64,000 nucleotides of DNA, from positions 251,488 through 315,487 of IMG/VR virus record IMGVR_UViG_3300027896_005002; one strand, 5' to 3'. The notes under the pieces are model-generated. The model was not told the origin of the DNA, did no database searches, and saw nothing but the letters and a program-made list of their open reading frames with translations. Source of the DNA: a virus. The position numbers and the translations under genes were made by a program. Of this stretch, positions 3,957-43,322 are shown piece by piece (within the stretch, counting starts at the first letter, position 1; every line of letters begins with the position of its first letter).

Positions 3957-4319
3957 CTAACCACCTTCCAATTCATTAAATTCTGTCTCTTCATCATCAT
4001 CAAAAATAGCTTTTTCAACAAGTAAACAAAGCATTGCTTTAACAAAATCTTTACCCATCATTTCATTACTACAATGCAGTTTTCCATCTTCAACATAAAA
4101 AGAAAATGATCCAAAACCAGTACCTTTCATACTCCAATGCACTTCAACTGGATGATACAAAGTCGGCGTTAATTCAAAACCAAAAGCTTCTTCATATTTT
4201 TTGACCATTTCTTTCGGTTTTGTTATAAAATCCTTATCAATGGTCATATCAAAATTTGCATCAGTTTTAAACGACTCGAATATCTCTTCAAGCTTCGACT
4301 TCTTTTGCGATCGCTTCAT
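3957..4319 (-). CDS. Hypothetical protein (start trimmed to an internal Met to avoid a 150-nt overlap with dnaE)
   Basis: The track ORF 3957..4439 overlaps the upstream polymerase ORF by 150 nt; the internal Met at 4319 (MKRSQKK...) gives a roughly 30-nt overlap. Confidence 0.25.
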   Translation of the reverse strand: MKRSQKKSKLEEIFESFKTDANFDMTIDKDFITKPKEMVKKYEEAFGFELTPTLYHPVEVHWSMKGTGFGSFSFYVEDGKLHCSNEMMGKDFVKAMLCLLVEKAIFDDDEETEFNELEGG

Positions 4320-7269
4320 ATTTTGCCATTCTTTCCTTTTGCTCTTCTGTTTTTTCATATACATTACCAACACAACAAACATCATACATATCAATGAAGA
4401 TATGATCCATATACTGACTAGTTTCAACTTCTCCGGCAATTATATTTGCTATTTTAATAACATCTAATATTGGTATCTTCTTAAATTTATCGCCTACTGG
4501 AATTAATGCCTTTTGACAACGTTTATTATATATTGGTAATCTAACTTTCACTATATTAAATTTTGCATCAGTTAATACAACATAATAATAAGCATTTCCA
4601 TTTTTACTTGTCTTTTTAATGATATCAGTTATTATTCCCCAAGAATATTGCTTTTGATGTAATCTTGGCTCCGTAAATTTTGTTAATGATTTAGCACCTA
4701 TATCTTTTATTTTCTGTTTTTGAATATCTGTTAATTTTGTTCTCCAATCAACACCATAAGCTTCCACAAATCTATCATGCTCAAATTTTTTATCATTGTA
4801 ATCGACATCTTGTTGCCAATTTTTCTCTTTCCTAATCTCAACAAAATATTTTTGTAATATCTCATTTTGTGTACCAAAACAATCAAAAGCATGAGCATCT
4901 ATCAAAGCAACAACAACACCTTTTCCAATCTTTTTAATCTCTGCTGTTTTACTATAAAAACCTTCAAAAGAAACAAAAGGTTGCGATGTAACTATTGTAT
5001 TGACTGCTGCCGGTCCTACACCTACAATATGTTCAATTCCAAACATAATGTTATTTTCATGAATTGTAAATCCTCTATTTGCTGTCCTAATATCAACAGG
5101 TATAATATTAATACCTTTATTCATTGCTTCAGCAAAATAACTCGGAAATTTCTCTGTTAATGAATTTGAAAACAATACTACAAAGAATTCCAGTGGATAA
5201 TACATCTTAAACCACATCATTTGGTAACTGAGAATCGTGTATGCTACTGCATGCGATTTATTGAACCCATAGCGAGTGAATGATACGCAGTTATCCCACC
5301 AAGATTCAGCTACTTTTGAAGTTAATCCATTGCTAACGCAGCCTTTAATGAATTTATCTTTAATTTCTGCTCGTTGTTTTGCACTTTTGTCTTTAGCATC
5401 TGTATCTCTAACAGATTTCATTAAATTCTTTCTGACAGTATCAGTCAAATCTAATGGAAATCCTGCTACAATATGACACAATCTCATAACATCTTCTTGA
5501 TAAACTAAGATGCCATAACTTTCCTTAAGACATTTTTCAATTAATGCAGATCCAAAATCAAATTTCTTACCATGTTTTCTTTCTGCATATTCATGATGCA
5601 TTCCCATATCTAACGGTCCAGGTCGTCCTAATGCAGTTGCTGATGTAATGTCTGCAAATGAATTCGGTTTTATTTCCTTAAGTAAAGATTTCATCAAACT
5701 ACTATTATGGACAACAAATCCATTTGCAACATAATTATGTTTTTGTTTTGTATTAAAACCAATATCATAAACAGTTTTTAATCCAGAATAAATAAATTTC
5801 TTAATTTTAATAAATTTATATCTTTGTGTATATTTTTTAAATTTACCAAGAACTTTTGGTTCACAATTTTTTTTGATGCATTGTTTACAAATATTATCAA
5901 CGCGACACTGTTCAACAATTGCGCGAGAAGATTCACAATAATATTGTGACCGTTCACGTTCTTGATCAATTAATACATTGTCACCAACTTTTAAATCTTT
6001 AAGTTGATACCAATCTATCTTTCTATTCTTTTTAGCATAATATTCATGTAGTTGAGTTGATTCAATACACATTTGATTTTCAAGTATAAGAATAAAAACA
6101 TGATCTTGTTTTTTCTGCATTGCTTGAATTTTTTGTCGTATCTTCCGTTTATTCTTGAGATCAACACAACCAATCTTATTTACAGATTCTGGATCTTGTA
6201 CAAATTTATTATACAACTCTTCAATCCTATAATTTCCTATCCAAGAATTTTCACCAATACACTCAAACTGGAAAATACCATTAGTATCTGTCTGTCTAAA
6301 TCTTTCATATACAAGATCATTTCCATCTAATGGCAATTTTGCTGAAAACTCTTCATATAACAATGATGTTAACTGTCCATTATCAATTGATTCAATGTCA
6401 AAATCTGCTTCTTTATTGTAAGATTTTCTTAATCTAATTAAGTCAAGTATCTCCTTTACAATGGTCAACGTTTTGAGACCTAAAATATCAAATTTGATAA
6501 ATCCTGAAGACTGTAAATCTTTCCTAATGATACCATCAACCCAACTTGTAATCAATTCATCTTTATGTCTCATTAATGGTATTGATTCATCAATTTTATC
6601 TGGAGTCGCAACGACACCTGCCGGATGTTTTGTTAGATGTCTTAGCTGACCTTTTAATTTGAAAATTATATCTTTTATTTGTGGATGTCGATCAAAATAT
6701 TTTCTTAAATCATAAAGATCTTTTCTGAATTCTTTATCACCTGGTTCTTTAGCTATTAAAATATCAAAATCTTCTTCAGATAAAAGATCAACATCATCAC
6801 CGAGATTTTTAACAACATCATTAGTATCATTTAAGTCAATATCAAAAATTCTGGCAATATCTCTAGTAACCATTTTCATTTTCATTTGACCATAAGAACC
6901 AATAGGTGCTACATGATCACTACCGTATTTATTGATAAAGTATTTTATAACTTGTTCTCGTTCATTAATACTAAAGTCACTATCAATATCAGGAAATGAA
7001 GATTGTTTTTTAATGACTAACGGCAAGTTTGATTGGACTGGATCTGTTTGAGAGATACCAAGAAGATAATAAATTAATGATCCATGTTTTTCAATTTTTG
7101 TTTCAGTTTTTAAAATATTGAGAACATAATCTATATTGTTTTGAACTTCAATATTTGACAATTCTTTTTCAAGCTGTAGAATATATCGCTGATCTTGCTG
7201 TAAACCTAACTTTGTAAGATGTTTCTCGCAAAGATATTGAATAAAATTTAATTTGGTTAATTCGGCCAT
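4288..7269 (-). CDS. dnaE: DNA polymerase III alpha (DnaE) family, C-terminal portion carrying the palm catalytic motif
   Basis: 993 aa ORF. Contains ...GSLIYYLLGISQTDPV...SSFPDIDSDF... (DnaE palm PDxDxDF catalytic aspartates) followed by KYGSDHVAPIGSYGQMK, matching the DnaE core downstream of the FERFLNPER motif. Confidence 0.85.
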   Translation of the reverse strand: MAELTKLNFIQYLCEKHLTKLGLQQDQRYILQLEKELSNIEVQNNIDYVLNILKTETKIEKHGSLIYYLLGISQTDPVQSNLPLVIKKQSSFPDIDSDFSINEREQVIKYFINKYGSDHVAPIGSYGQMKMKMVTRDIARIFDIDLNDTNDVVKNLGDDVDLLSEEDFDILIAKEPGDKEFRKDLYDLRKYFDRHPQIKDIIFKLKGQLRHLTKHPAGVVATPDKIDESIPLMRHKDELITSWVDGIIRKDLQSSGFIKFDILGLKTLTIVKEILDLIRLRKSYNKEADFDIESIDNGQLTSLLYEEFSAKLPLDGNDLVYERFRQTDTNGIFQFECIGENSWIGNYRIEELYNKFVQDPESVNKIGCVDLKNKRKIRQKIQAMQKKQDHVFILILENQMCIESTQLHEYYAKKNRKIDWYQLKDLKVGDNVLIDQERERSQYYCESSRAIVEQCRVDNICKQCIKKNCEPKVLGKFKKYTQRYKFIKIKKFIYSGLKTVYDIGFNTKQKHNYVANGFVVHNSSLMKSLLKEIKPNSFADITSATALGRPGPLDMGMHHEYAERKHGKKFDFGSALIEKCLKESYGILVYQEDVMRLCHIVAGFPLDLTDTVRKNLMKSVRDTDAKDKSAKQRAEIKDKFIKGCVSNGLTSKVAESWWDNCVSFTRYGFNKSHAVAYTILSYQMMWFKMYYPLEFFVVLFSNSLTEKFPSYFAEAMNKGINIIPVDIRTANRGFTIHENNIMFGIEHIVGVGPAAVNTIVTSQPFVSFEGFYSKTAEIKKIGKGVVVALIDAHAFDCFGTQNEILQKYFVEIRKEKNWQQDVDYNDKKFEHDRFVEAYGVDWRTKLTDIQKQKIKDIGAKSLTKFTEPRLHQKQYSWGIITDIIKKTSKNGNAYYYVVLTDAKFNIVKVRLPIYNKRCQKALIPVGDKFKKIPILDVIKIANIIAGEVETSQYMDHIFIDMYDVCCVGNVYEKTEEQKERMAKYEAIAKEVEA

Positions 7270-9809: not shown

Positions 9810-11660
9810 TTATTCCTCTTTTATCAATCGATTCTCATACCACTTATCAAAATCATCCTGATCATAATCTAATTCTTTTAACACTTTACTCTCAATATTA
9901 AAATCCCTTATTGAAAAATCATAAATTGCAACACTTCTAGACATGCTCAAGAATCTCTCAAATAATAGTCCATGTATTATTGGATCAACATTCGTTATAT
10001 CTAAAAGATAACAAACAAGAGATCCTGCAGCACTCCCTCTAGCAGATCCTACGAGAACGTTATTCTGTTTTGCAAATTTAATATAATCTGCTACAATAAG
10101 AAAATAATCTGCCATATCTGTTTTTCGAATAACACTCAATTCTGTCTTCACTCGTTTTATATAAACATCATCCCATAAATCTGTTGCTTTTCTTTCCCAA
10201 CCTTCTCTGGCCATTTCTACAAGGTACTCATAACTACTTTGGTTATCTTTTGTCACAATTCTCGGCAATTTCTCTTTAGAATCCCAATCCCAAATATTTA
10301 CTTTATTTGCTACTTCTAAAGTATTATTCAATCCTTCAATTAATTCATCTGGTGTCATATATTTACTATGACCAGCATCCAAATATGTATCTATCATTTG
10401 ATGACGATCTTTAAACCATAAATCCTTTGTAGCAAATTCCCATACTCTCTTAAATTTCTTTTTGCCTGTAATAATTTCATATATCTCTTCAAATGAAATC
10501 CCATAATCTTTATTATAAGATGTTAGTCTAAATTCAGCAAATCGATCCAACTCTATAAAATCGCTGTGTATTTGTCTGACACAACTTTCTGTTTGTGTTT
10601 CACCGCATTTTTCTTTAATAGCATCTAGAATTTCTCCAATGGCATTCATTCGTTTTTTATCTTTCATTGTGACCTGTTGACCATCATCCTTTGATCCCAA
10701 CATTAGAGAAATTTCTTGCGCCTTTGAATCTTCTTTATCTAAATAATGAACGTCATTTGTTATGATGTATTTGATATTTAATTCTTTGGCAATATCTATT
10801 AAAATTCTGTTGACATATCGTTGTTTGTCAATATCAATTATCATGATTTCAATATAGAAGTCATCACCAAATATTTCTTTAAATTGTTTTGCAACTTCAA
10901 TTCCCGCTTTTTTAGCACTGTCAACATTATTATCTTCATTCCTTAAAATAGCATTATTTATTGAACCAGCAAGACATGCTGATGACACAATTAATCCTTC
11001 TTTATTTTCAGCTAAAAAATTGAATGCTGTCCGAGGTTTATAGTAGAATCCATTTCTTGCAGCATCAGATACTATTTTAATGATATTTCTTCGGCCTTTT
11101 TCATTTTTTGCCAGGAGGACAACATGTCGATTATATTTGAGATGATCACGTTGTTTTGATAATTCTTCTTGTTGTTGTTTTAATTTTTTTAGTTCTTCAC
11201 CAAAAGCTTCTTTTATTTCTGAAGAATCTAATTCAAGAATTTCTTCAACATTATTTTTACCCATTATATGATCAAATATTGCAATATTAGCATTCACTAA
11301 TTTTTGACTTATTTTCTTATTTACAATTTGTTTAACGACTTTCATCACGCTTTCTATTTTATCTATTTGAACTTCTAATTCTTTAACCAAATGTCGTTCA
11401 TTTTGCATGTACATTTCAACACCAACAATTGGTTTTAAATTATTAGATCTACAATACATAAAGAAAGAAGGATGAGCACCTATACTACCATGATCAGTTA
11501 TTGCAAGAGCTGACATTCCTATTTCAATTGCTTTTTTGGCATATTGTGTAGGTTTTCCAATACCATCTTTGAGAGAGAAATCACTATGAAGGTGTAAGTG
11601 AATAAAATCTTTTTTATCACCAGATGCATATAATTTTTGTTTTAGTTCTTCTAATTCCAT
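9810..11660 (-). CDS. dnaE: DNA polymerase III alpha (DnaE) family, N-terminal portion (PHP domain and start of palm)
   Basis: 616 aa starting ATG at 11660. Has the PHP motif HLHLHSDFSLKDGIGKP...ITDHGSIGAHP and ends with ...VGSARGSAAGSLVCYLLDITNVDPIIHGLLFERFLSMSR (DnaE GSAAGS/FERFLNPER region) before a stop. Confidence 0.85.
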   Translation of the reverse strand: MELEELKQKLYASGDKKDFIHLHLHSDFSLKDGIGKPTQYAKKAIEIGMSALAITDHGSIGAHPSFFMYCRSNNLKPIVGVEMYMQNERHLVKELEVQIDKIESVMKVVKQIVNKKISQKLVNANIAIFDHIMGKNNVEEILELDSSEIKEAFGEELKKLKQQQEELSKQRDHLKYNRHVVLLAKNEKGRRNIIKIVSDAARNGFYYKPRTAFNFLAENKEGLIVSSACLAGSINNAILRNEDNNVDSAKKAGIEVAKQFKEIFGDDFYIEIMIIDIDKQRYVNRILIDIAKELNIKYIITNDVHYLDKEDSKAQEISLMLGSKDDGQQVTMKDKKRMNAIGEILDAIKEKCGETQTESCVRQIHSDFIELDRFAEFRLTSYNKDYGISFEEIYEIITGKKKFKRVWEFATKDLWFKDRHQMIDTYLDAGHSKYMTPDELIEGLNNTLEVANKVNIWDWDSKEKLPRIVTKDNQSSYEYLVEMAREGWERKATDLWDDVYIKRVKTELSVIRKTDMADYFLIVADYIKFAKQNNVLVGSARGSAAGSLVCYLLDITNVDPIIHGLLFERFLSMSRSVAIYDFSIRDFNIESKVLKELDYDQDDFDKWYENRLIKEE

Positions 11661-12194
11661 TTATCTTAACAAGCTTTCTTGAGAGACTACAGTGTCTTTT
11701 CCATTACAAACACATTCCATTATTTGATTTTCTTTATCAGTCGATTTACTTGTTGAACTAGCATATGGAAGAAATTTACTTGCACAATTATGACATTCAA
11801 GAAATCCTAATCCTATTTCTTTTAATTCTTCTCCACAATTAAAGCAATAAAACATTGTGTGCTCAGTTATTTGATTACTAATTACAAAAGACTCAAGTCG
11901 TTTTCTTATAATTTCTAACTTATCTTCTTGTCCGAAAAAAGCACCTTGTAACGAACATTTAGGTCCATTTGTACCACATGTAAATGATAATTTATTATTT
12001 TCAAATTCTATTACTAAATATTCTAATTGATGACTAAAATAAAATACAAATTCGCCATCACTAATAGGTGGAAGTGCAGTCCATCCAACTACAGATTTAT
12101 TCCAAGTAGATTGAGGTCTGTTTTCTGATAAATCCATGTATTCTTTGAACAATCGTTCCAATTCATCTATTACTATTTTATCATTTATTATCAT
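11661..12194 (-). CDS. Hypothetical zinc-ribbon protein
   Basis: 177 aa with CFNCG...CHNC. Confidence 0.3.
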   Translation of the reverse strand: MIINDKIVIDELERLFKEYMDLSENRPQSTWNKSVVGWTALPPISDGEFVFYFSHQLEYLVIEFENNKLSFTCGTNGPKCSLQGAFFGQEDKLEIIRKRLESFVISNQITEHTMFYCFNCGEELKEIGLGFLECHNCASKFLPYASSTSKSTDKENQIMECVCNGKDTVVSQESLLR

Positions 12195-12195
12195 T

Positions 12196-12477
12196 TTATT
12201 TGATCCAAGTTAAAGACCAAGAATCACCAGGACGTTCAAATCTATTATCATATCGATGATAAAGGATTGGAAAATCAAGTTTGAAACATCCTTTCGGACA
12301 TGTGCATAAAACAGCTCGACCATATTTGGGATGAATACCTTCAAGCTCATCCCATTCTTTATCAGATAACTTTTCATCAGGTTTTTTATTTAATTCATCA
12401 ATGCGTTCTTGAGAAACTGATGAATGTTGTTCTAATTCAAATCCACATAAAGGACAATGCATTTTATCTCCAATCAA
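12196..12477 (-). CDS. Hypothetical zinc-ribbon protein
   Basis: 93 aa with CPLCG...CTCPKGC. Confidence 0.3.
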   Translation of the reverse strand: MIGDKMHCPLCGFELEQHSSVSQERIDELNKKPDEKLSDKEWDELEGIHPKYGRAVLCTCPKGCFKLDFPILYHRYDNRFERPGDSWSLTWIK

Positions 12478-13120
12478 TTAATTCTTTACCCATTTCCTTC
12501 AATAATTCATTGGTCTTCGAAAAATGTTTACATCCAAAAAATCCTCTTGATGCTGACAGCGGTGATGGATGATTTGCAGTCAAGATATGATTTCCATCAG
12601 CAATGTATTGCTGTTTCTTTTGTGCGTGATTACCCCATAACAGAAAAATAATGTCTTTTTTACTAGAAATTAATTGTATGACATTATTTGTAAATATTGA
12701 CCACCCAATGTGTGAATGCGACATTGGTTTATGAGCTTCAACAGTCAAAGCCGTATTTAATAAAAGAATGCCTTGTTGTGCCCAAGATGTTAAATCAGTT
12801 GATGTTTTCTCAATATTCAAATCATCTTTTAATTCTTTAAAAATATTCCTCAAGCTTGGTGGTTTTTTTATTCCTTGTGGCACCGAAAAACATAAACCAT
12901 GTGCTTGACCGTCATCATGATAAGGATCTTGACCTAAAATTACTATTTTTAATTTGTCAATAGAGCATTGATTAAATGCATTGAATATTAGATTTTGAGG
13001 AGGAAAAATTTGTGATGTTTTATATTCATTTTCAAGAAAAATTTCCATTTTTTTAAAATATAACTTATTGAATTCATTTTCAAAAAATTTAAACCATGAT
13101 TCTTCTATAAAATCTATCAT
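12464..13120 (-). CDS. ung: Uracil-DNA glycosylase, family 1
   Basis: VILGQDPYHDDGQAHGLCFSV, PPSLRNIFKEL, WAQQGILLLNTALTV and HPSPLSASRGFFGCKHFS are the canonical family-1 UDG motifs. The track start at 13123 is GTG; ATG at 13120 is the more likely start. Confidence 0.85.
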   Translation of the reverse strand: MIDFIEESWFKFFENEFNKLYFKKMEIFLENEYKTSQIFPPQNLIFNAFNQCSIDKLKIVILGQDPYHDDGQAHGLCFSVPQGIKKPPSLRNIFKELKDDLNIEKTSTDLTSWAQQGILLLNTALTVEAHKPMSHSHIGWSIFTNNVIQLISSKKDIIFLLWGNHAQKKQQYIADGNHILTANHPSPLSASRGFFGCKHFSKTNELLKEMGKELIDWR

Positions 13121-13125
13121 CACAA

Positions 13126-13374
13126 TTATTCACCATCTTCATATTTGATGTTGATATTAATGGGTATTTGACGTTTATAACTATTTGCGGCTTTTAGATT
13201 ATTTTTCTTAATATGCGCCCATATAACTTTTATTGTAGAAATATCAACTGTTTGGTTTTTCAAATTTGAATCAAGCTTTTTAAATACTAAATTCATTAAA
13301 CAATGTTTAGGATCAGCACCATTACCGCAACCTACTGTTAACCATTCACTACAAAGAGTATTTGAACATTTCAT
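13126..13374 (-). CDS. Hypothetical protein
   Basis: 82 aa ORF. Confidence 0.25.
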   Translation of the reverse strand: MKCSNTLCSEWLTVGCGNGADPKHCLMNLVFKKLDSNLKNQTVDISTIKVIWAHIKKNNLKAANSYKRQIPININIKYEDGE

Positions 13375-13377
13375 AAT

Positions 13378-14079
13378 TCATCCTTGCCAGTAGCAATATA
13401 AACATTTATGAGTACATCTTATTTTCTGAGTTAGTAATTCTTTCTTACTTGCTAAACATGCACAATGTTCTCGTTGACCTTTTGCAAAATCAATAAATTT
13501 GACACCTAAAATTTCACAATCAATTTTAGAAACACAGCCGGTACATTCAAAACCAGGTTCACCACAAACCTCTGGTTTTCCAAAATCTTCCCATATTTTC
13601 TTTCTTAATTCTAGTGGAGCATGAAAAGTACTCCATGGTAAACGTATCTTTAATTGATCAAATCGTTCCTTTACATGATCATATTGATCAATAAAAGATA
13701 TTCTTACTCTAGTTTTAACAATTTTTTGAGCTTTTTCTAGTACTTGTTCGGCTAATTTAGTACCAATATCAGTTGGAATAATTGGGTCTATTCGCAAAAC
13801 AATCCGTTCTGGTCCATAATAATCACAAAGTTTTTCAAATCCTTTTAATGATTCATTAGAATGAGGTACTTCACATTCATATATTGATTGACCAAGACCA
13901 GTAATAGTAGTATGAATAATTATATTAAATTGTTTTGAATTTGGAGTGTGTTCAAGAATGTCGAATAATTTATCAGGATCTTTAGTTATGAGGATTGCCG
14001 GCTTGTTGTCTTGGACCCATGGTAACCAAGCATGATCAAATACAGGATCTCCACGTTCTGTTATTCCAATTAGATTCAT
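13378..14079 (-). CDS. DUF1848-family putative 4Fe-4S protein
   Basis: GPERIVLRIDPIIPT and the C-terminal cluster CGEPGFECTGC...CACLASKK...CTHKCLYCYWQG match the DUF1848 pattern (GPERVIWRYDPII...CNCVVSKD...CxHGCRYCYA) recalled from archaeal and bacterial members. Confidence 0.55.
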   Translation of the reverse strand: MNLIGITERGDPVFDHAWLPWVQDNKPAILITKDPDKLFDILEHTPNSKQFNIIIHTTITGLGQSIYECEVPHSNESLKGFEKLCDYYGPERIVLRIDPIIPTDIGTKLAEQVLEKAQKIVKTRVRISFIDQYDHVKERFDQLKIRLPWSTFHAPLELRKKIWEDFGKPEVCGEPGFECTGCVSKIDCEILGVKFIDFAKGQREHCACLASKKELLTQKIRCTHKCLYCYWQG

Positions 14080-14813
14080 ACATGTAAGTTTGTATTTGAT
14101 AAAAAATGATCGACAATTCGTTGTACTAAATCAAAGTGCTTTTCATATAAATGACCACTATTAGATATCCAAATTAATTCACCAATGTCTAAAGAAGGAT
14201 ATACTATCTGTAAATCATGCAACATTCTTTCTTGAATTATAGCAAACCATGGAAAATCTGAAAAGAATCCATACATCATGTCAGAACTTCTCATTTCAAC
14301 CAATGAGATTAATTTATCATGTCTAATAAAAAACTGTTGACCTAATGTACAGATAAAATCTGACATTCCATTTTTATTATATTCTTGTTGTATTGAAGGT
14401 CTATTATAAATTATTATTGATCGTCTTGAAAATGAATTTTTTGATAATTCTGCTAATGCACTATCATATTGATTGAAATTTTCTTTACTGTAGACTAAAT
14501 AACCATAATTACTATTTATTACTTGTTGTTCATCTTTAGAACAAACATTTAACCAAAGTTTGGCATGTTTGGCTATTTCTTTTACTGAAAGATCTTGACT
14601 ATCATACCATTCAATTTCATGTTGTATGTATTCCACAGGTGATTTTCTTATACCGAATAAATCAAGAAATTTTTGTGTAGGGTCAAGACTCATTTTCAAA
14701 CCAAGAACTTCAACTGTTTTGACGCCTGTTTTGTCTATTACAAAATCATTATTTTTGATTTTATTGTAAAAAGGCAATAAAGCATTTTCAATAAAAATTT
14801 GTTCATTTTTCAT
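14076..14813 (-). CDS. Deoxycytidylate 5-hydroxymethyltransferase (T4 gp42-like dCMP hydroxymethylase)
   Basis: Close to the T4 gp42 sequence as recalled. FVIDKTGVKTVEV matches FVVDKTGVKTIEI. INSNYGYLVYSKENFNQYDSALAELSKNSFSRRSIIIYNRPSIQQEYNKNGMSDFICT matches INSNYGWAIWSEDNYAQYDMCLAELGQNPDSRRGIMIYTRPSMQFDYNKDGMSDFMCT. Confidence 0.8.
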   Translation of the reverse strand: MKNEQIFIENALLPFYNKIKNNDFVIDKTGVKTVEVLGLKMSLDPTQKFLDLFGIRKSPVEYIQHEIEWYDSQDLSVKEIAKHAKLWLNVCSKDEQQVINSNYGYLVYSKENFNQYDSALAELSKNSFSRRSIIIYNRPSIQQEYNKNGMSDFICTLGQQFFIRHDKLISLVEMRSSDMMYGFFSDFPWFAIIQERMLHDLQIVYPSLDIGELIWISNSGHLYEKHFDLVQRIVDHFLSNTNLHV

Positions 14814-14855
14814 AATAGTTTTTATTTATATTTTTTGTCGTCACTTTTACAATAA

Positions 14856-14887
14856 ACAAAAAAAAGACTGATGCTTTTGACATCAGC
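14856..14887 (-). terminator. Rho-independent terminator downstream of the HU gene
   Basis: Hairpin ctgatg / catcag with a 7-nt loop, followed on the minus strand by a T-run (revcomp of aacaaaaaaaag). Confidence 0.5.
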
Positions 14888-14914
14888 CTTTTTAGTAATC
14901 ACGTGAAGAATTGT

Positions 14915-15301
14915 TTATTCTTCAGCTGAATCTTCGACGTACTTTTCAAGTTCGATAACGCCATTAACCAGCTGTTTGAGATTCTTTAACGGTCTGAATT
15001 TCACGACGTCCTTGGCAGGAATACTGACCATTTTACCAAAGGATTTACGATCCCGTGCTTCTCTGTGAAGCTTCACGAATTTTCCAAAACCAGGGATCTT
15101 CACATAGCCTTTTTCAAGAAGTCCTTTCTTGACTGAGTATACAACTGCTTGAATTGCAACTTTGGATTCCCTACGGGATAGACCCGTTACTTCTTGCACG
15201 ACTGAAATAAGATCCGGCATTCTGAACTGATCACTCTTTGCACGACGTTTCTTCGTCGTCTTTTCAGTTTTTTCTGTGGCTGCTGCCTTGTCTTTTGCCA
15301 T
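14915..15301 (-). CDS. HU/IHF-family DNA-binding protein with Lys-rich N-terminal extension
   Basis: ...GYVKIPGFGKFVKLHREARDRKSFGKMVSIPAKDVVKFRPLKNLK matches the HU signature (GFGxFxxxxRxxRxGRNPxTGxxIxIPAxxVxxFKxxKxLK). GC visibly higher than the flanks. SD GGAGG before the ATG. Confidence 0.8.
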   Translation of the reverse strand: MAKDKAAATEKTEKTTKKRRAKSDQFRMPDLISVVQEVTGLSRRESKVAIQAVVYSVKKGLLEKGYVKIPGFGKFVKLHREARDRKSFGKMVSIPAKDVVKFRPLKNLKQLVNGVIELEKYVEDSAEE

Positions 15302-15526
15302 AAAAATCCTCCCATACGTTAAAGTTAAGTGAACTAAAAATCAATCTAAAGTGTTAAACTACATATTATTACTATACTCGATTTTTTTTAAAATTTACAA
15401 TTTACCTCAATTAATGTACTATCACAGTTGTATAATTACAAAATGCTACAGATAGCATTTACTACAGCATTCAAAATTCATTGATTTTAAGAAATAATGA
15501 GGTGTTAATGTGAAGATCGAAGATTT

Positions 15527-15994
15527 TTATAATTCTAAAATTTCAAATCCATTTAAGGCAGCATTTGTTATTGCATCTTCTTTTGTGTCACAAACCATAA
15601 GAAGTAATCCGTCCTCACCATCTTTAATGGAATTAATTATGGCTTGGTCATCTTTTATCCATAATGCAAATTTTTCTAATCTACCATCTTCATTTTCAAC
15701 TTGAACAATTATACCTTCAGAATCATCTAACAAATCTTGAAATTTACCGACAAGATACTCAAGTATTGTTTTGTCATCATTACAGTTAATCAATTCTTTC
15801 TCAAGATCTGATTTATCATCAAGATAAGTTATCGCTTTCGTTAAACATCTAGCTACAACTTCAGGATACATTATTTTACCCATAATTCTTTCATATGTGT
15901 CAATACATGATTGACTATTTCGTAATTGACCACCTACGCAACCTGCACTTCTTGCAGGACAACTATTACATGGTGGAGGACTAAATTCTAACAT
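15527..15994 (-). CDS. Hypothetical protein with N-terminal Cys cluster
   Basis: PPCNSCPARSAGCVGG...SCID; no family assigned. Confidence 0.3.
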   Translation of the reverse strand: MLEFSPPPCNSCPARSAGCVGGQLRNSQSCIDTYERIMGKIMYPEVVARCLTKAITYLDDKSDLEKELINCNDDKTILEYLVGKFQDLLDDSEGIIVQVENEDGRLEKFALWIKDDQAIINSIKDGEDGLLLMVCDTKEDAITNAALNGFEILEL

Positions 15995-16008
15995 TTGCTT
16001 TCAGAATC

Positions 16009-16920
16009 CTATGAAAAATTTGCTACAAATGTTTCAAACTCTCTAATAAAAGAATTAAACTCATATTTCTTAAACATAGTCTTCAATTTAAGAAAATCAG
16101 GTTTTACTTTTGAATCTACTGTAATATCCATATCTGTACAAATTGTAACTAATTTTTTATTTAATATCAATTGCTCTTTATGCTTATTTATTTTTTCTTG
16201 TAATTTACTACTAATAGGCTTCTTAACACCATCAGAAGCAAATTTGTAATGTATATCGACTTTAACAATATCCTCAATATTTCCATTACACTGTATCAAT
16301 TCCTTTGATGTCTTTTTTCCTATACCATCAATCCCATTAATATTGTCGGTAGAATCACCGTTTAATGCTAAATAATCTACAAATAAACTTGGCGGAATGC
16401 CATATCTCTCTTTTACTACTTCTGGTGTCATAATCCTATCAGCACCATCTTCACCTTGTCGAGGATTAACAACGTTCACATTTTGACTAACCAACTGATT
16501 GAAATCCTTATCTCCAGAAATAATAAGTACTTTGTAGCCGAATTTTCTAGATTTCTTAGTAAGAACACCAATTATATCATCTGCTTCAGTATTAGATATT
16601 TGAATTTGCCTCACACCTAATAAAGTTAAAAATTCTTTAGTTAATTGCAATTGGTAAATGAATTCATTTGACCGTGGTTCTCTATTAGCTTTATATTCAG
16701 CATATATTTCTTTTCGAAAATTCGATCCTCCACCATCCCAAACAACTACCATTATATCACTTGGATATGTTGATGCAATTATTCTTAATGAATTTAGAAA
16801 ACCAAAAGTAGCACCAACAAATACTGTTTCATTATCAACAATACATTTTAAATGTTGAAAGGATGGAACATGAAATGTTCGACTTAAAAGATGATTCGCA
16901 TCAATTAAAACCGTTCGCAT
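16009..16920 (-). CDS. 5'-3' exonuclease / flap endonuclease (Pol I 5'-nuclease, T4 RNase H / T5 D15-like)
   Basis: EADDIIG, ISGDKD and the HhH-type INGIDGIGKKTSKEL motif. Confidence 0.8.
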   Translation of the reverse strand: MRTVLIDANHLLSRTFHVPSFQHLKCIVDNETVFVGATFGFLNSLRIIASTYPSDIMVVVWDGGGSNFRKEIYAEYKANREPRSNEFIYQLQLTKEFLTLLGVRQIQISNTEADDIIGVLTKKSRKFGYKVLIISGDKDFNQLVSQNVNVVNPRQGEDGADRIMTPEVVKERYGIPPSLFVDYLALNGDSTDNINGIDGIGKKTSKELIQCNGNIEDIVKVDIHYKFASDGVKKPISSKLQEKINKHKEQLILNKKLVTICTDMDITVDSKVKPDFLKLKTMFKKYEFNSFIREFETFVANFS

Positions 16921-17255
16921 TATAATACTACTAAATCTGGAAGTGGTTGAATTTTTGTTATATATCCATTGGCATATGCCGACAGTTGTATTCTACCTAA
17001 TTTAGAAATAAGTTCAATTCGTTGATCAACATCCTTTATTGTAGTCAAAGAAGACTGTAAATGTTTTATACAATTTAAAACCCAATCTTTATCTTTTCCA
17101 TATTTCAAATGTTCTATTAATGAAGGTATTACTTGACGACAAGCATTGTTAATAACTTCTGATTTTTTTGTATGACAATTAAATCTTTTATGTTCATGCA
17201 AAAAAGTTTTTAATAACTCTTCTACATCACTATCTATATCTATAGTTGTTCTCAT
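16920..17255 (-). CDS. Hypothetical protein
   Basis: 111 aa ORF. Confidence 0.3.
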   Translation of the reverse strand: MRTTIDIDSDVEELLKTFLHEHKRFNCHTKKSEVINNACRQVIPSLIEHLKYGKDKDWVLNCIKHLQSSLTTIKDVDQRIELISKLGRIQLSAYANGYITKIQPLPDLVVL

Positions 17256-17325
17256 ACATCTCTCTTTAATTATATTTGTTCTTCAAACTATTTTCATCTC
17301 TATATTTTTCACTAACTCTTCTTTT

Positions 17326-17850
17326 TTAGGCTTCATGTTCCGATTTTTCAGTCATATCAATTTTTTTTAATATCTTATCTGAATCCTGCCAGTTAATGCC
17401 GAATTGTTCGAGAATAAAATCGAAATCTTGAATATTGTGTTTTATACATTTTCTAAATTCTTTTTTATTTAATTCATCAAAGCCGCCTGGCGGTATATGA
17501 AGTAACTCATGTAAAATTAATACATATTTTGTTGACATGTCAATAACTAACCAATTTTCCATGTGTACAGTAAGTACATAATCTAGATCGGTAAATAAAC
17601 CATACATAGGTTTCATACCGTAGATTTTTGCTTGATAGCTACATTTTTTCTTTGAAAAGCCAAGATAACCAATTCTACTTGGTTTGAGATGACTTAATTT
17701 TTCTGAAAATTTTTCTATTAATTGTGATACAATTGGTTTAATGTCAGAATCACGTTTTTCCCATTTAGGTAATTGAATTCCACCAACATCACTAACTGCC
17801 ACTTTTTGAGAGTCTTGAATGTCATCTTCAGCAACAGGTCTTTTTGCCAT
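17326..17850 (-). CDS. Putative HExxH metal-dependent hydrolase
   Basis: ILHELLHIPPGG contains an HExxH zinc-binding motif; otherwise unassigned. Confidence 0.3.
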   Translation of the reverse strand: MAKRPVAEDDIQDSQKVAVSDVGGIQLPKWEKRDSDIKPIVSQLIEKFSEKLSHLKPSRIGYLGFSKKKCSYQAKIYGMKPMYGLFTDLDYVLTVHMENWLVIDMSTKYVLILHELLHIPPGGFDELNKKEFRKCIKHNIQDFDFILEQFGINWQDSDKILKKIDMTEKSEHEA

Positions 17851-18199
17851 AATTACTCCTTTTTAGATATTTGTATACTTTAACCGAGTGCGCGATTAAG
17901 CGTGAAATTGCACAATCTTTATAATTCCAGCGCCAACCTTATCGCCAGCACCTTTTATCACTTATCACGCCCTACGGTATGACTTAAATTCTTTATTCTT
18001 TGAATTATCATTTTTTCTTTTTCTACAAGATCAATATCAACCTCTTCATTGTCGTCATTTGTATCATCTTGTTTTTTATCCTCATCGTCTGACATGTTAT
18101 CCTCTTTATAAACATTGTATTTCTCGTTCAGAAAACAAACAATAACTATTACGTTATTATAATTTACTTTTCAAAATTTAATTTTTACGTTTGGGACAG

Positions 18200-18514
18200 T
18201 TAATCAGATTTGCAAATTGGATAGAAGAATCTGCCTCGAGAATTGCCAACGCCAGCAAACTTATAATTTACCCAATATTCTATTAAAGAATCATTGACTT
18301 CTAAATAAAGACTCATAGAACATATATAATAAGCTTTTTTATTAGTATTTACCCAATAAATATTTTGATCACCATTTTGACCTATTAATTTTATATCTAT
18401 TATAGTGCCTGCAGAACGTACTTCAATATTATCATTAAAGCTACAAACAATTGACGCTATAATTAATAAAAATAAACAACATTTTTTTAAAACATGCATG
18501 CTTCTAAAAACCAT
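18200..18514 (-). CDS. Small secreted protein (signal peptide)
   Basis: 104 aa; N-terminal hydrophobic segment KKCCLFLLIIASIVCSF. Confidence 0.35.
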   Translation of the reverse strand: MVFRSMHVLKKCCLFLLIIASIVCSFNDNIEVRSAGTIIDIKLIGQNGDQNIYWVNTNKKAYYICSMSLYLEVNDSLIEYWVNYKFAGVGNSRGRFFYPICKSD

Positions 18515-20109
18515 CCAGGCAAAATTTTTCTATGTTTCCTGATAAAACCTCTAGCACCACTATCAAAAATATATGCAGTTCCCCAGTCTTGTTCTGATCT
18601 AAATATTCGTCCATAACTTTGTACTAATGTCAAGCAAGTTTGCCATATATACCACTCAGGATCCACGACCATTCTTCTAGCAACTTGTTTATCACCAATA
18701 TACAAATAAGGAATTTTAACTATTATTTCCCATCGTGCAAGATCATCTTTTAAGTCAACGCCTTCAGTCATTGATGGAGATACTAATACTAATGGTTCTT
18801 TTGACGTCAAAAATTTTTGTAATGAACTTTCTCTCGTTGTTGACGTATGAAATAATAACCTATTGTTTCCACAATTATTTTCTAAATAATTTGAAATTTT
18901 ATAGGAATTACAATGTATTAAACCCTTTTCTGTTTTATGAAAATTAAGAGCTTTATTTACATCAACAGCAATGTTATCTAAAGTTTTGTCAATATTTGCA
19001 AGATTCATATAACCAGTATCTGTAAAATATATTCTTCTATTCTTTGCTGGAAATGTTGAAGGTACTTGTATGAAAATAGCATTATCAGCATTTAAACCAA
19101 GACTCTTACAAAAACTATTTTTATCAAGAATTGTAGCAGATAGATAAACTCGTTGATTGCCAAAACTAAGTAAAGATTCTTCAGCAAATAAATCGACTGT
19201 TAATGGTTTGAATACAACTTTTTTCATTTTTAATTTTTCAGTTTTTTCAATAGTAAAGATCCATTCAACTGTTGCAAGCGTCCTCAAAAATAAATTCATT
19301 CGACGTACAAGTCTATCAAGGTCTTCAACTTGTGATATCAATTCGGTAGCTTCACCAGATAGTTTAAGAAATTCTTTTGATATTCGATTTAAATCTGATC
19401 TTTGACGATTTAATGAATTTAATTCATCTGATTTTGATGCAAGTAATTTTGCTAATTCATTTATATTTTGTTCGATCCAAAGTTTATATTCATCCAATGT
19501 TTCATAATTTGGTATTTCCACAGGATAACCAACTCGTTTAAATAAAAATTCTGATAGTAAGAATTCTGTTTGACCCATCAATTCTGACTCAATACAGTGA
19601 CATTCGTCGCAAATTAATAAGTTTCTCGGTTTAAAGAGATTACTTGGATCACATTCAATCACATTTAAAAAATATGAATAATTCATTAAAGCAATTGCTG
19701 ATCGAGCTGCTCTTTGTTTTGCATTTTGATATAAACATGTTCCGCTTTTATAACAATTTTTTCTTGCAGCCTCATAACATTCATTACACATTGCTGGTGA
19801 TCCTAAGAAAGTACATTCATAATTTCCTCTACCTTTCATAACAGCAATTTGTGTACCTTCTTCAAAATCTCTAGAATATTGATCTTGTAAGATTTTTTGT
19901 GATGTTAAACAATATGCTTGGTCTGACCAAAGACCAGCAGCGATTGCTACAGGTGATTTTCCAGAACCTGTTGGCATTTCAACAATAATATCTTTTACAC
20001 CATTTAATAAATGTGTCTGAATGGCTTCAGTGACTTCGCGCTGATGTTTACGATATGATGGTCTGGGGAAAAAATCTGTTATTTGTTTATTATCAAACCT
20101 GGGATTCAT
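18487..20109 (-). CDS. SF2 DNA helicase of the DinG/XPD (Rad3) family with Fe-S cluster domain
   Basis: Motif I EMPTGSGKS, motif II LICDECHCIE. Four Cys (YECTFLGSPAMCNECYEAARKNCYKSGTC) lie between motifs I and II, as in the XPD/DinG 4Fe-4S domain. Confidence 0.7.
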   Translation of the reverse strand: MNPRFDNKQITDFFPRPSYRKHQREVTEAIQTHLLNGVKDIIVEMPTGSGKSPVAIAAGLWSDQAYCLTSQKILQDQYSRDFEEGTQIAVMKGRGNYECTFLGSPAMCNECYEAARKNCYKSGTCLYQNAKQRAARSAIALMNYSYFLNVIECDPSNLFKPRNLLICDECHCIESELMGQTEFLLSEFLFKRVGYPVEIPNYETLDEYKLWIEQNINELAKLLASKSDELNSLNRQRSDLNRISKEFLKLSGEATELISQVEDLDRLVRRMNLFLRTLATVEWIFTIEKTEKLKMKKVVFKPLTVDLFAEESLLSFGNQRVYLSATILDKNSFCKSLGLNADNAIFIQVPSTFPAKNRRIYFTDTGYMNLANIDKTLDNIAVDVNKALNFHKTEKGLIHCNSYKISNYLENNCGNNRLLFHTSTTRESSLQKFLTSKEPLVLVSPSMTEGVDLKDDLARWEIIVKIPYLYIGDKQVARRMVVDPEWYIWQTCLTLVQSYGRIFRSEQDWGTAYIFDSGARGFIRKHRKILPGWFLEACMF

Positions 20110-21269
20110 TCATTTATAATTTTCTCAAATTTGTTCACAACATTCTTAATATCAAAAGGTTCTAATTCTTCAATTTGTACATCAAGAATAAGTTGTCTTT
20201 TTTTAACACTGGCATTTTTTAGATATTCAATTCTTTCTACTAAATCATATGCATCAGTAATTATATTTTCAGGACAAATAAACTGTTCAATTCCTTTTTG
20301 CTCTGCTAATCCAATAGCAATTACACCGTTTGCTGCAGTTTCATGTATTCTTTGAGTAATATGACCATGTTCAGCATAATTTTTCTTACATAATAAAACT
20401 GACGTCAAACATCTATTATAGATTAAATTCATATCTTTTGGTAAAATACGATCAGCAAAACAAATAAAAGGAAAATTCACTATATTTCTTTTAGCTATTT
20501 TGGAATATTTCATCCAATTACCGACAAATATTACTTTTTCTGGATATTCTGCAGCAAATGGATTAATATATTTGTAAACTTGGTCGTCTCTTTCATATTG
20601 TGAACCAATATATCCGATAAGATAATCAAGTCTTTCATTAACTTTAGTACCTTTAATTTTTTCCAAATCACATGGAAATAATAATGTCTGTCTAGTAATT
20701 ACATTTTTTATTGGATAAAGAGCTGGTGATAAAATTTTTATATCACTTATAAGATCGCAATTAAAATTAATTACATTACTATCATATTTTAATGTTTTAC
20801 AAGAAAATTGTGATCTTTTATTTAGTAATAATAATTCATCATCAGATGTCATTTTTTCATCTTTATCCCAAATTATTATTTTAGTCGGTGTATTTAAATA
20901 GTGACATAATAATTCTTGTTGTCTATCTAAATCAGGTGTATAGTTTTTGTCTGATTTGTCAACATTACAATTTCGGCCTTCAATTGGCCATCGCCATTCT
21001 AAAAATAAAATATCAACATTTGGAAATTTGTCATCATATTTGATTAAGCATAGAGTTTGTTGCTGTAAATGTTCATAAGTGCCTTGGGTATTAAACCCAA
21101 AAAGTGGTTCATTATTGTGATCAATATCTCTATTTTTTTGAACCCAAATAACCTCATGACCTCTTTTAATAAGATGTTCAATAAATAAAGCTCTTGTTAG
21201 TCTTCCTCCATCTGGAGAATCCAATAATCCATCACCAATAAAGCCCCAAGCTGAATAAGCTATTTTCAT
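20106..21269 (-). CDS. T4 beta-glucosyltransferase-like protein (putative hydroxymethyl-base glycosyltransferase)
   Basis: N-terminus MKIAYSAWG resembles T4 BGT MKIAIINMG. IGYIGSQYERDD matches VIYGGSFRSGQRE, and NYAEHGHITQRIHETAANGVIAIG matches NYNDNFITLRVWETMASDAVMLID in T4 BGT as recalled. Confidence 0.5.
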   Translation of the reverse strand: MKIAYSAWGFIGDGLLDSPDGGRLTRALFIEHLIKRGHEVIWVQKNRDIDHNNEPLFGFNTQGTYEHLQQQTLCLIKYDDKFPNVDILFLEWRWPIEGRNCNVDKSDKNYTPDLDRQQELLCHYLNTPTKIIIWDKDEKMTSDDELLLLNKRSQFSCKTLKYDSNVINFNCDLISDIKILSPALYPIKNVITRQTLLFPCDLEKIKGTKVNERLDYLIGYIGSQYERDDQVYKYINPFAAEYPEKVIFVGNWMKYSKIAKRNIVNFPFICFADRILPKDMNLIYNRCLTSVLLCKKNYAEHGHITQRIHETAANGVIAIGLAEQKGIEQFICPENIITDAYDLVERIEYLKNASVKKRQLILDVQIEELEPFDIKNVVNKFEKIINE

Positions 21270-21301
21270 AGTATTATAATCATGTTAGAAATCATTGATT
21301 T

Positions 21302-21766
21302 TTAATAATCTGAACTTTGAATTCGTCGTAGATTTTTGTCATTTTTATTTAGACATGAATCCATAAAAACGGGAGCAGTAATGTTCCATGCTATAGCCAG
21401 ATTTATTACAAAATGTTGTATGTCAGCAATTTCATCTCTTATATTTTCAATAATTACTGGATGACGAACTTTTTTGTGTGATTTGAAATTTGTTTCACGT
21501 AATAATTCGTGAACCTCTTCTAAAAGATATAAGCATGTATCTTTTGTATATCTTTCTCTTTCTTCAATAGATATATCTTTGAAATCATATCCTAAGATTT
21601 TTTGTATTTTTATTTGTCTATCAAAAAATTCATCAATAAAAGCTTTTTCAGTATAAACGTATTTATAAATTTTATTTCTTCTTGAAAGTATTGTTTGTAA
21701 TATCATTCCAATAAATATTCCGACACATATACAGCCAAAAATGATGTAATACATAAAAAATTCCAT
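21302..21766 (-). CDS. MazG-like nucleoside triphosphate pyrophosphohydrolase (candidate dCTPase), with N-terminal hydrophobic segment
   Basis: LLEEVHELLRE ... ENIRDEIADIQHFVINLA follows the MazG/all-alpha NTP-PPase EExxE...EExxD pattern. Confidence 0.45.
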   Translation of the reverse strand: MEFFMYYIIFGCICVGIFIGMILQTILSRRNKIYKYVYTEKAFIDEFFDRQIKIQKILGYDFKDISIEERERYTKDTCLYLLEEVHELLRETNFKSHKKVRHPVIIENIRDEIADIQHFVINLAIAWNITAPVFMDSCLNKNDKNLRRIQSSDY

Positions 21767-21767
21767 A

Positions 21768-22286
21768 TTAAGCCACCTTAATATCTTCTAACCTTATTGT
21801 AGTATAAATCGCACGATTGAAAATTTGTATTTCAACTTTGAGATTATTTACATCCGGGATATCAACAATTCTACCAGAAAGACCTTTACAATGACCATTT
21901 AGAATTTCAACAACATCACCAATTTTATATTGAAATGAGCATCTTATTTTGTTATCACCAGCAAATACTTTTATAATATCAATTTCTTGATTACGCAATG
22001 TTGAAGGTTTATCATCTACTCCTAAAAATTTGATAACATAATTTATTTCATAAATCGAGGCTTTAACGTTTGTATTTATTAAGTTTGTATTAATGAAGAG
22101 ATAACTTGGATAGACAGGAATGTTACGAATTATTTTTCTTTTTCGAACTTCTGTTACTTCTTTTATGGTGGGTAATAAAACCTCAGTAATTTTTCCATCT
22201 AAATCAGGTGAATTTAGAATACGGTCTTTTACATAAAATTCTTTTTCTTGAACAACAAATAATACATACCATTTGTTAATTGTCAT
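21768..22286 (-). CDS. NusG-like transcription antitermination factor (NGN plus KOW)
   Basis: N-terminal WYVLFVVQEKEF (NGN signature WYVxxxxxGxE) and KOW-like GDVVEILNGHCKGLSGRIVDI. Confidence 0.65.
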   Translation of the reverse strand: MTINKWYVLFVVQEKEFYVKDRILNSPDLDGKITEVLLPTIKEVTEVRKRKIIRNIPVYPSYLFINTNLINTNVKASIYEINYVIKFLGVDDKPSTLRNQEIDIIKVFAGDNKIRCSFQYKIGDVVEILNGHCKGLSGRIVDIPDVNNLKVEIQIFNRAIYTTIRLEDIKVA

Positions 22287-43261: not shown

Positions 43262-43322
43262 TATATTCTCCGGGTTAAAACGAAAAGTCCAGATTTTATA
43301 CTGGACTTTTCTTAAAAATGGA

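Follow-up and report, generated by a model that had tools for sequence, protein, structure and literature searches.

Phage T4 replaces the cytosine of its DNA using a dCTPase (gp56), a deoxycytidine monophosphate (dCMP) hydroxymethylase (gp42), a deoxynucleoside monophosphate kinase (gp1), and beta- and alpha-glucosyltransferases (BGT and AGT, respectively). A 64,000-nucleotide stretch of an uncultivated viral genome (IMG/VR record IMGVR_UViG_3300027896_005002, positions 251,488 to 315,487; hereafter the window) encodes a gp42-like protein at positions 14076-14813. The question raised by this locus is whether a phage of a different kind modifies its cytosines in the same manner. We consider it fairly probable that this phage replaces DNA cytosine with glycosylated 5-hydroxymethylcytosine (5hmC) by the T4 route. 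Three genes are central to this prediction:

14076-14813, minus strand: T4-type dCMP hydroxymethylase (i.e. 5-hydroxymethyl-dCMP synthase), 245 aa, heading a putative transcription unit (PDB, Pfam and active-site alignment)
20106-21269, minus strand: predicted 5hmC-DNA glycosyltransferase with a GT-B fold, remote T4 BGT homologue, 387 aa (AF2, Foldseek, hhalign and hidden Markov model)
21302-21766, minus strand: gp56-like all-alpha nucleoside triphosphate (NTP) pyrophosphatase, candidate dCTPase/dUTPase (PF08761, dUTPase_2, 29.5 bits)

These genes had been named in an original prediction, made from the letters of the window, of glucosyl-hydroxymethyl-pyrimidine DNA. All genes listed in that prediction were found where it had placed them, on the minus strand.

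Identity of the hydroxymethylase

The 14076-14813 product was compared with proteins of known structure and matched T4 dCMP hydroxymethylase (i.e. 1b5e and 1b49) over residues 6-236 with an E-value of 3e-53, as compared to only ~1e-7 for ordinary thymidylate synthases. A match to PF00303 (E 2e-19) was also observed. In tblastn searches, the gp42 proteins of hundreds of T4-like phages exhibited 42-43% identity to this product at 100% coverage. Identity to T4 gp42 itself was 42.9% over 233 aligned positions but only 19.8% to RB69 gp48.

The comparison with RB69 is relevant as the gp42 look-alikes RB69 gp48 and DLP3 gp80 were shown in a 2026 paper to be flavin-dependent 5-hydroxy-dCMP synthases (PMC13326640). 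According to the same study, N177D indicates that cytosine is the substrate, acidity of residue 143 indicates a non-methyl product and D169N is diagnostic of the 5-hydroxy type, with Asn being present at position 169 in all of the tested 5-hydroxy-dCMP synthases (PMC13326640). The window hydroxymethylase was therefore examined in an alignment with E. coli ThyA, T4 gp42 and RB69 gp48 (residues are given in E. coli ThyA numbering). Identity with T4 gp42 was found at 15 of 16 active-site positions, the window residues being E58, W80, Y94, S142, D143, C146, T147, M165, R166, S167, D169, G173, D177, H207 and Y209. The catalytic cysteine is the C of a DFICT motif, aligning with E. coli C146 and T4 C148, and the D177 residue that sets cytosine rather than uracil as the substrate is the D of GFFSD, aligning with T4 D179. 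As in T4, an aspartate occupies the L143 position, where an acidic residue indicates a hydroxymethyl rather than a methyl product; D143 would give water access to the active site, so that a product other than methyl is expected.

Alternatively, the window enzyme might generate a different C5 product, either 5-hydroxy-dCMP or 5-methyl-dCMP. The existence of gp42-like 5-hydroxy-dCMP synthases in RB69, DLP3 and other phages gives this alternative a precedent (PMC13326640). The window enzyme resembles those of the RB69, DLP3 and RL38JI 5-hydroxycytosine systems in having D177 and in being acidic at position 143. In contrast to the N169 of those systems, however, the window enzyme has D169, i.e. 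the hydroxymethyl type, and RB69 gp48 departs at three further active-site positions (i.e. F58, A80 and V173) at which the window enzyme retains the T4 residues. The higher identity to T4 gp42 (43%) than to RB69 gp48 (20%) also argues against a 5-hydroxy product, whilst the presence of D143 instead of a bulky hydrophobic residue argues against a 5-methyl product. Formation of either product is considered highly improbable. Due to the match at 15 of 16 active-site residues and the difference in identity, the 14076-14813 product is assigned with high confidence, by sequence criteria, as a predicted T4-type 5-hydroxymethyl-dCMP synthase. The gp42 likeness claimed in the original prediction was thus borne out, and a gp42-type active site supports cytosine as the modified base; reference to pyrimidines in general was too wide and is narrowed here to cytosine.

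The glycosyltransferase and its genomic partners

A search of a large protein collection detected 62 homologues of the 20106-21269 product (the window GT), nearly all of which were metagenomic. An AlphaFold model generated with an alignment of 38 homologues exhibited a confident GT-B fold with two Rossmann domains (pLDDT, the model's confidence score, of 92.5). The top Foldseek match of this model in the PDB was T4 BGT (1c3j, E 1.3e-10), placed narrowly above other GT-B enzymes. Pairwise BLASTP with T4 BGT produced a 93-residue match in the C-domain and, when the family alignment was compared with this protein by hhalign, a probability of 79% was obtained (E 1.6e-5, 144 columns). Hidden Markov models (HMMs) of the GT family scored T4 BGT at 32.3 bits when built from 38 sequences and at 40.2 bits when built from 107 sequences; scores were below zero for both T4 AGT and the RB69 arabinosyltransferase gp46:47, a difference from the RB69 system. 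Direct comparisons of the window GT with T4 AGT (PF11440) detected no significant similarity (BLASTP E 0.6, hhalign probability 1%). Five invariant residues of the GT family (i.e. G222-S223, R227, R307 and E310) align on G188-S189, R191, R269 and E272 of BGT, which we take from the BGT structures to be the nucleotide-sugar-binding residues. Judged by these profile and fold comparisons, the window GT is a remote but real homologue of T4 BGT, and is not related to T4 AGT or the RB69 arabinosyltransferase. The BGT-like character put forward in the original prediction is therefore upheld, including by the comparison with the BGT and AGT families. The resemblance to T4 BGT comprises homology in the nucleotide-sugar domain and a shared GT-B fold.

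Other searches with the window GT were unproductive. No matches were detected in PHROGs or NCBIfam, sequence comparison with the PDB gave nothing meaningful, and tblastn searches of 50,697 deposited phage genomes with the window GT and two distant family members produced no match. An exhaustive profile search at E <= 1e-3 detected 813 cluster representatives (50% identity) of the GT family. The invariant D135, located at the end of strand 130-134, was considered as a catalytic base and dropped, as the global alignment, with low confidence in this part, sets BGT D100 on E91 instead.

Comparative genomics provides the strongest evidence for the function of the GT family. A set of 83 GT loci was assembled, of which 79 were detected by scanning IMG/VR with the alignment of the family and four came from protein look-ups. 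A ThyA-fold open reading frame (ORF) was present within 10 kb and on the same strand in 76 of these 83 loci (92%). Approximately 25 of the 76 partners adjoin or overlap the GT gene and most of the others are located within ~1.2 kb. The residues C146, D143, D169 and D177 were found in every partner covering those alignment positions (74-75 of 74-75), even though most partners are only ~29% identical to T4 gp42. When the GTs were clustered at 50% identity, 21 of 23 clusters retained the association, as did all 11 clusters obtained at 40% identity. As a control, 50 viral loci were picked by the presence of DUF1848, a family with a member encoded next to the window hydroxymethylase; a ThyA-fold ORF was located within 8 kb in two (4%) of these loci and a thymidylate-kinase-like (TMK-like) kinase in none. 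A TMK-like ORF was detected in 77 of the 83 GT loci, adjoining the GT gene in 56, and a homologue of the window NTP pyrophosphatase in 51. DnaE was present in 77 loci and a T4-type polymerase in none. In one relative (L006, 335 kb), the genes for the hydroxymethylase, GT, DUF1848 protein and DnaE occur in that order without intervening genes.

These findings bear on whether the acceptor of the GT is 5hmC in DNA. A phage could produce unglycosylated 5hmC-containing DNA and use its GT-B enzyme on a cell-envelope, protein or small-molecule acceptor. This alternative is unlikely given that a ThyA homologue with the hydroxymethylase signature accompanies 92% of GT loci as compared to 4% of controls, that the GT gene of L006 lies directly between those for the hydroxymethylase and DUF1848 protein, and that T4 BGT is singled out by the sequence profiles.

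Several elements of this picture are already known, namely betaGT-like GT-B enzymes in metaviromes, their association with thymidylate synthases and ThyA-based cassettes. Hypermodification cassettes combining a ThyA homologue with a kinase and a first GT have been described (PMC13326640). The GT loci resemble the RB69, DLP3 and RL38JI clusters of that study in that a TMK-like kinase, a GT-B enzyme and a cytosine-specific ThyA homologue are encoded next to one another in 56-77 of 83 cases. Metaviromic betaGT-like GT-B enzymes (i.e. GT53, GT66 and GT94) put sugars on 5hmC, and HMM mining found GT-B relatives adjoining thymidylate-synthase homologues in ~28% of contigs (Pyle et al., bioRxiv 10.1101/2023.12.21.572611). 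The window GT resembles those enzymes in being a GT-B protein of an uncultivated phage with T4 betaGT as its structurally nearest neighbour, a likeness drawn from their published description. The tested enzymes of Pyle et al. differ in following a methyltransferase/TET route to 5hmC rather than the pre-replicative ThyA route predicted here.

The sugar may vary within the family. On a 40-kb phage contig (L005, 8913-11083), a UDP-galactopyranose mutase gene is located directly upstream of a GT homologue and overlaps its start, which suggests galactofuranosyl modification of 5hmC in that lineage; the sugar may thus differ between lineages. No sugar-nucleotide synthesis genes were seen among the window ORFs scanned, a difference from the RB69, DLP3 and RL38JI clusters, and hence use of a host UDP-sugar is assumed.

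The predicted pathway and its alternatives

The 21302-21766 product (the window NTPase) was compared with the T4 gp56 family. A score of 29.5 bits was obtained for PF08761 (cut-off 22.9), as compared to 25.4 bits for T4 gp56, such that the two proteins share a Pfam family. A profile built from the window NTPase and its metagenomic relatives only was able to detect T4 gp56 (33.7 bits) and RB69 gp56 (35.2 bits); pairwise BLAST with gp56 was weak (E 1e-3). The translation contains EEVHE and EIAD, read as the acidic motif EXXE...EXXD, which we take to be the metal-binding motif of MazG-like enzymes. The gene is located 32 nt upstream of the GT gene and is also directly upstream in another relative, L007. 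The window NTPase is most naturally read as a candidate dCTPase, and the MazG-like designation and dCTPase role suggested in the original prediction are in keeping with its placement in the gp56 family. Residues 1-27 comprise a hydrophobic stretch (MEFFMYYIIFGCICVGIFIGMILQTIL) that looks like a membrane anchor or the result of a mis-set start codon.

In the proposed pathway, the gp56-like pyrophosphatase would hydrolyse dCTP, and probably dUTP, to the monophosphate, as expected from its family membership. Hydrolysis of dCTP would both remove the canonical precursor and supply the substrate for the hydroxymethylase. The gp42-like enzyme, for which sequence support is strong, would then convert dCMP, methylene-tetrahydrofolate and water into 5-hydroxymethyl-dCMP (hm-dCMP). 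Kinases would raise this product to the triphosphate, although a specific kinase was not found in the window, and the DnaE-type replicase of the phage would presumably incorporate the hydroxymethylated triphosphate. After replication, the BGT-related GT-B enzyme would move a sugar from a nucleotide-sugar onto the hydroxymethyl group in DNA, a step suggested by the distant relationship with T4 BGT and by the almost invariable presence of a hydroxymethylase gene nearby. By default, the sugar is guessed to be a hexose supplied as a host UDP-sugar. A second ThyA-fold enzyme (positions 1-737) would most likely supply dTMP, and a uracil-DNA glycosylase (UNG; 12464-13123) would prevent uracil from persisting in the DNA. 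The proposed mechanism is that of T4, but set in another type of phage and with a sugar-adding enzyme only distantly related to that of T4. The scheme shares with T4 the hydroxymethylase family and its near-identical active site and the presence of a separate ThyA-fold enzyme alongside the hydroxymethylase.

A number of observations weigh against this pathway. Firstly, a Pfam scan of the window GT produced a sub-threshold match to Glyco_trans_1_2 only and no match to the BGT family PF09198 at E <= 0.01. As controls, T4 BGT scored 325 bits on PF09198 in the same library; this model spans only the BGT N-domain, and the C-domain of T4 BGT itself yields the same weak Glyco_trans_1_2 match. PF09198 presumably corresponds to CAZy family GT63. 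As the window GT is distant and fails the Pfam BGT model, with an N-domain that unlike that of T4 BGT has no PF09198 match, the protein is named BGT-related and not a BGT. Secondly, the equivalent of the BGT catalytic base D100 is placed by a low-confidence part of an alignment. Global hhalign sets the BGT sequence LFTD100IRLP on LFLE91WRWP, in which both E91 and R93 are invariant in the GT family, such that E91 as the counterpart of D100 depends on this low-confidence global alignment.

Thirdly, searches of the window and 10 kb to its left for an hm-dCMP kinase, using T4 gp1 and a TMK-like profile, detected no gp1- or TMK-like kinase, a difference from T4 to which the lack of an AGT homologue in the window may be added. 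The adjacent TMK-like kinase of most GT loci is also missing from the close relatives of this phage. The hm-dCMP kinase gene may be located elsewhere in the 416-kb genome. An AAA_33 kinase encoded at 2163-2591, the only match obtained, was considered for this role and rejected; the match was weak (11.5 bits, E 0.004) and the gene lies among RNA-repair-type genes, its product probably being a polynucleotide kinase.

Finally, a GT homologue with ~31% identity is encoded in the chromosome of Streptomyces phaeochromogenes (L143, JAPELP010000010.1, 7333-11065). Its neighbours encode a ThyA-fold enzyme with D143, D169 and D177, a carbamoyltransferase, a methyltransferase, two APH-type kinases and sugar-nucleotide enzymes. 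This locus looks like a hydroxymethylcytosine nucleoside-antibiotic cluster, resembling the clusters of actinomycete nucleoside antibiotics with MilA-type CMP hydroxymethylases in the pairing of the GT homologue with such a ThyA-fold enzyme. In contrast to the phage module, the context is that of a chromosomal small-molecule cluster (i.e. carbamoyltransferase, methyltransferase and APH kinases). The GT family is probably able to act also on free hydroxymethylcytosine nucleosides or nucleotides, and the hydroxymethylcytosine moiety is therefore the common denominator of the family.

Glycosylation of free hm-dCMP, hm-dCTP or nucleoside by the phage enzyme would make the modification pre-replicative or yield a product that is not a DNA base. 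Both the Streptomyces context, which fits antibiotic synthesis on free substrates, and the nucleotide kinase that adjoins the GT gene in most phage loci are compatible with such an activity. T4 BGT, the only characterised relative, nevertheless acts on DNA, and a DnaE replicase would need to accept a bulky glycosyl-dCTP. The sugar-modified pyrimidines described in two earlier studies are also glycosylated on DNA after replication (PMC13326640; bioRxiv 10.1101/2023.12.21.572611). Action on free substrates in this phage is considered quite unlikely, and post-replicative glycosylation of 5hmC in DNA is the preferred reading.

If this prediction is true, the window derives from a huge, DnaE-replicating, uncultivated phage whose DNA has fully substituted, sugar-modified cytosines. 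DNA of this type would be protected from most restriction enzymes and from many CRISPR nucleases, and its sequencing and cloning behaviour would be altered. The occurrence of a distinct BGT-related family beside ThyA homologues with the hydroxymethylase signature, TMK-like kinases and DnaE provides a defined set of candidate DNA glycosyltransferases, and makes the handling of hm-dCTP by C-family replicases a question of interest.

The hydroxymethylase operon and the phage genome

The hydroxymethylase gene is accompanied by the following features:

14861-14893, minus strand: terminator-like hairpin with a 14-pair stem and a T run, separating the HU-like and hydroxymethylase genes (terminator scan and direct reading)
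13378-14079, minus strand: DUF1848 (PF08902) radical-SAM-like protein, 233 aa, start overlapping the hydroxymethylase stop by 4 nt
13126-13374, minus strand: 82-aa ORF between the DUF1848 and UNG genes
12464-13123, minus strand: family-1 UNG (NF003592, TIGR00628 and motifs)
9810-11660, minus strand: N-terminal piece of a DnaE-type replicative polymerase, with the PHP domain and start of the alpha domain (PF02811 E 8e-40, PF07733 E 3e-34)
4288-7269, minus strand: C-terminal piece of DnaE, with an intein (PF07733, PF17657, PF14579 and Intein_splicing)
1-737, minus strand: 5' part (245 codons) of a gene for a second ThyA-fold protein, which has 309 aa in the full contig (L138:10459-11388)

The hairpin at 14861-14893 marks the start of a new unit. 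Overlaps were observed at the hydroxymethylase-DUF1848 (4 nt) and orf93-UNG junctions, and gaps of no more than 2 nt separate the ORFs that run from the hydroxymethylase to the N-terminal DnaE piece. Due to the upstream hairpin, the overlaps and these short gaps, the ORFs from the hydroxymethylase to DnaE look like one transcription unit. Matches to sigma-70-type promoters were not in excess in this region (74 as compared to 76.9 in shuffled sequence).

The UNG was identified by matches to NF003592 (E 4e-90, 301.5 bits, cut-off 162) and TIGR00628 (E 7e-79, 264.6 bits, cut-off 185.75) and contains the GQDPY and HPSPLS catalytic motifs. By these sequence criteria, the 12464-13123 product is a bona fide family-1 UNG, in agreement with the original prediction of such an enzyme in this block. 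The adjacent 82-aa ORF had no match in Pfam, PHROG or NCBIfam and is absent from L006.

The original prediction had passed over the ORF at 13378-14079, located between the hydroxymethylase and UNG genes. Its product has a PF08902 match, a CX3CX2C cluster motif and a partial TIM-barrel radical-SAM fold. The protein is a short form, having the CX3CX2C motif at the C-terminus and four further invariant cysteines, and its predicted fold is nearest to spore photoproduct lyase. Sequence comparison with the PDB gave nothing meaningful and a literature search on DUF1848 found nothing useful. More than 1,000 homologues were detected, many on phage-like contigs of 100-590 kb, and DUF1848 is an uncharacterised radical-SAM-like family that is common in huge phages. 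On one 590-kb contig (L142), a NAPRTase and isochorismatase pair similar to the NAD genes of the window was observed near DUF1848.

This protein could further tailor the hydroxymethyl or glycosyl group, generating a new hypermodified cytosine by radical chemistry. Such a role is suggested by the 4-nt overlap and translational coupling with the hydroxymethylase gene, by the hydroxymethylase, GT and DUF1848 order in the 335-kb relative, by the radical-SAM fold and CX3CX2C motif, and by the activity of spore photoproduct lyase, the nearest structural neighbour, on the C5-methyl of pyrimidines in DNA. As a general partner of hydroxymethylases, however, DUF1848 was rejected: of the 50 viral loci selected by DUF1848, only two contain a ThyA-fold gene at a distance of up to 8 kb and only one contains the GT. 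In L007, which encodes a hydroxymethylase and GT, DUF1848 is absent from this position; the contexts of DUF1848 in two other huge phages were uninformative on the hydroxymethylase link. The window is also rich in DNA-repair genes (i.e. UNG, Ogg, PolX, FEN and ligase), which makes a separate, DNA-repair-type function more likely for the DUF1848 gene. Tailoring by DUF1848 is therefore viewed as decidedly unlikely; if true, huge phages would carry a so-far undescribed hypermodified cytosine.

The repair genes amount to a near-complete base-excision-repair set, all on the minus strand, consisting of the UNG (12464-13123), a 5'-3' exonuclease/FEN (16009-16920), PolX with a PHP domain (27270-28934), an Ogg-type 8-oxoguanine glycosylase (44148-44816) and an NAD-dependent DNA ligase (58954-60924).

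The gene at 1-737 had been noted in the original prediction as encoding a second ThyA-fold enzyme, and does constitute the 5' part of such a gene. The protein resembles methanogen-type thymidylate synthase (TIGR03283, E 1.5e-26 with the truncated protein, below the cut-off), and the full-length product matches PF00303 (E 2.5e-9). The best phage match was Methanobacterium virus PhiF1. Due to an insertion in the loop concerned, there are two readings of the base-specificity residue, with an Asn at +8 from D169 in an ungapped comparison and a Gly when HMMER places a 3-residue insertion. By analogy with T4 td, the enzyme is presumed to be a source of dTMP.

The window has a G+C content of ~30%, as expected of the AT-rich phage originally described, and nearly all genes are on the minus strand. 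Identical copies of window proteins were found on a metagenomic contig of 415.9-416.0 kb (ENA ERZ27247850 k141_2484546), and the window is therefore part of a huge phage. A nucleotide search with positions 12000-22000 against 50,697 deposited phage records produced no match. The hydroxymethylase gene is surrounded by a replication module encoding a primase, a sigma-70-like protein, NusG, an XPD-like helicase, a 5'-3' exonuclease, an HU-like protein and a split DnaE; the sigma-70 region 2 protein and NusG were confirmed. The window is best explained as the part of a ~416-kb uncultivated phage genome that serves replication and nucleotide metabolism.

In these respects the phage differs from T4, having a split C-family DnaE as replicase in place of the B-family gp43, a ~416-kb genome, sigma and NusG homologues, and UNG and DUF1848 genes in the hydroxymethylase operon. 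The contrast with T4 drawn in the original prediction from DnaE, sigma and NusG is thus real; it is not unusual, as DnaE is found in 77 of the 83 GT loci.

The two DnaE pieces align to residues 3-379 (9810-11660, belonging to the gene string of the hydroxymethylase) and residues 354-846 (4288-7269) of an intact phage DnaE. The 2.5 kb separating these ORFs contains five small ORFs, of which one is BrnA-antitoxin-like and another has a Cys-rich zf-like domain. A copy of the motif GS..YLL.I..DP is retained in both pieces, indicating that DnaE is not split cleanly. DnaE is in three pieces in L006. A gene ~3.6 kb to the left of the window (L138, 14033-16441) encodes an 802-aa RecA whose LAGLIDADG domain probably represents an intein; if so, a second replication or recombination gene of this phage contains an intein.

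Other genes of the window, all on the minus strand, were also recorded. NAD salvage and synthesis genes encode an isochorismatase-like protein (39572-40528; possibly a nicotinamidase), a nicotinate phosphoribosyltransferase (50005-51180), a glutamine-dependent NAD synthetase (52805-54412) and a Nudix hydrolase (55802-56365). RNA-repair-type genes are scattered through the window and encode the AAA_33 P-loop kinase (2163-2591), a cREC_REC protein (3144-3518; cyclic-phosphate-processing receiver domain), a T4 Rnl1-like RNA ligase (32404-33564) and a second RNA-ligase-like ORF (61598-62215). A Ser/Thr protein kinase-like gene (40580-42439) is directly followed by a gene for a PP2C-type phosphatase (42440-43417). 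Host-like envelope and transport genes within this phage consist of an ABC transporter ATPase (44813-45670), a permease component (45619-46488) and a 587-aa protein with a C-terminal OmpA domain (46499-48262). A GIY-YIG/NUMOD3 homing-endonuclease-like gene (51177-51941) adjoins a weak radical-SAM-like ORF (51945-52808; PF04055 E 8e-4). Two tRNA-Cys(GCA) genes were detected at 61225-61292 and 62858-62948; the latter has its anticodon at position 37 and its unusual length of 91 nt may be due to an insertion or intron.

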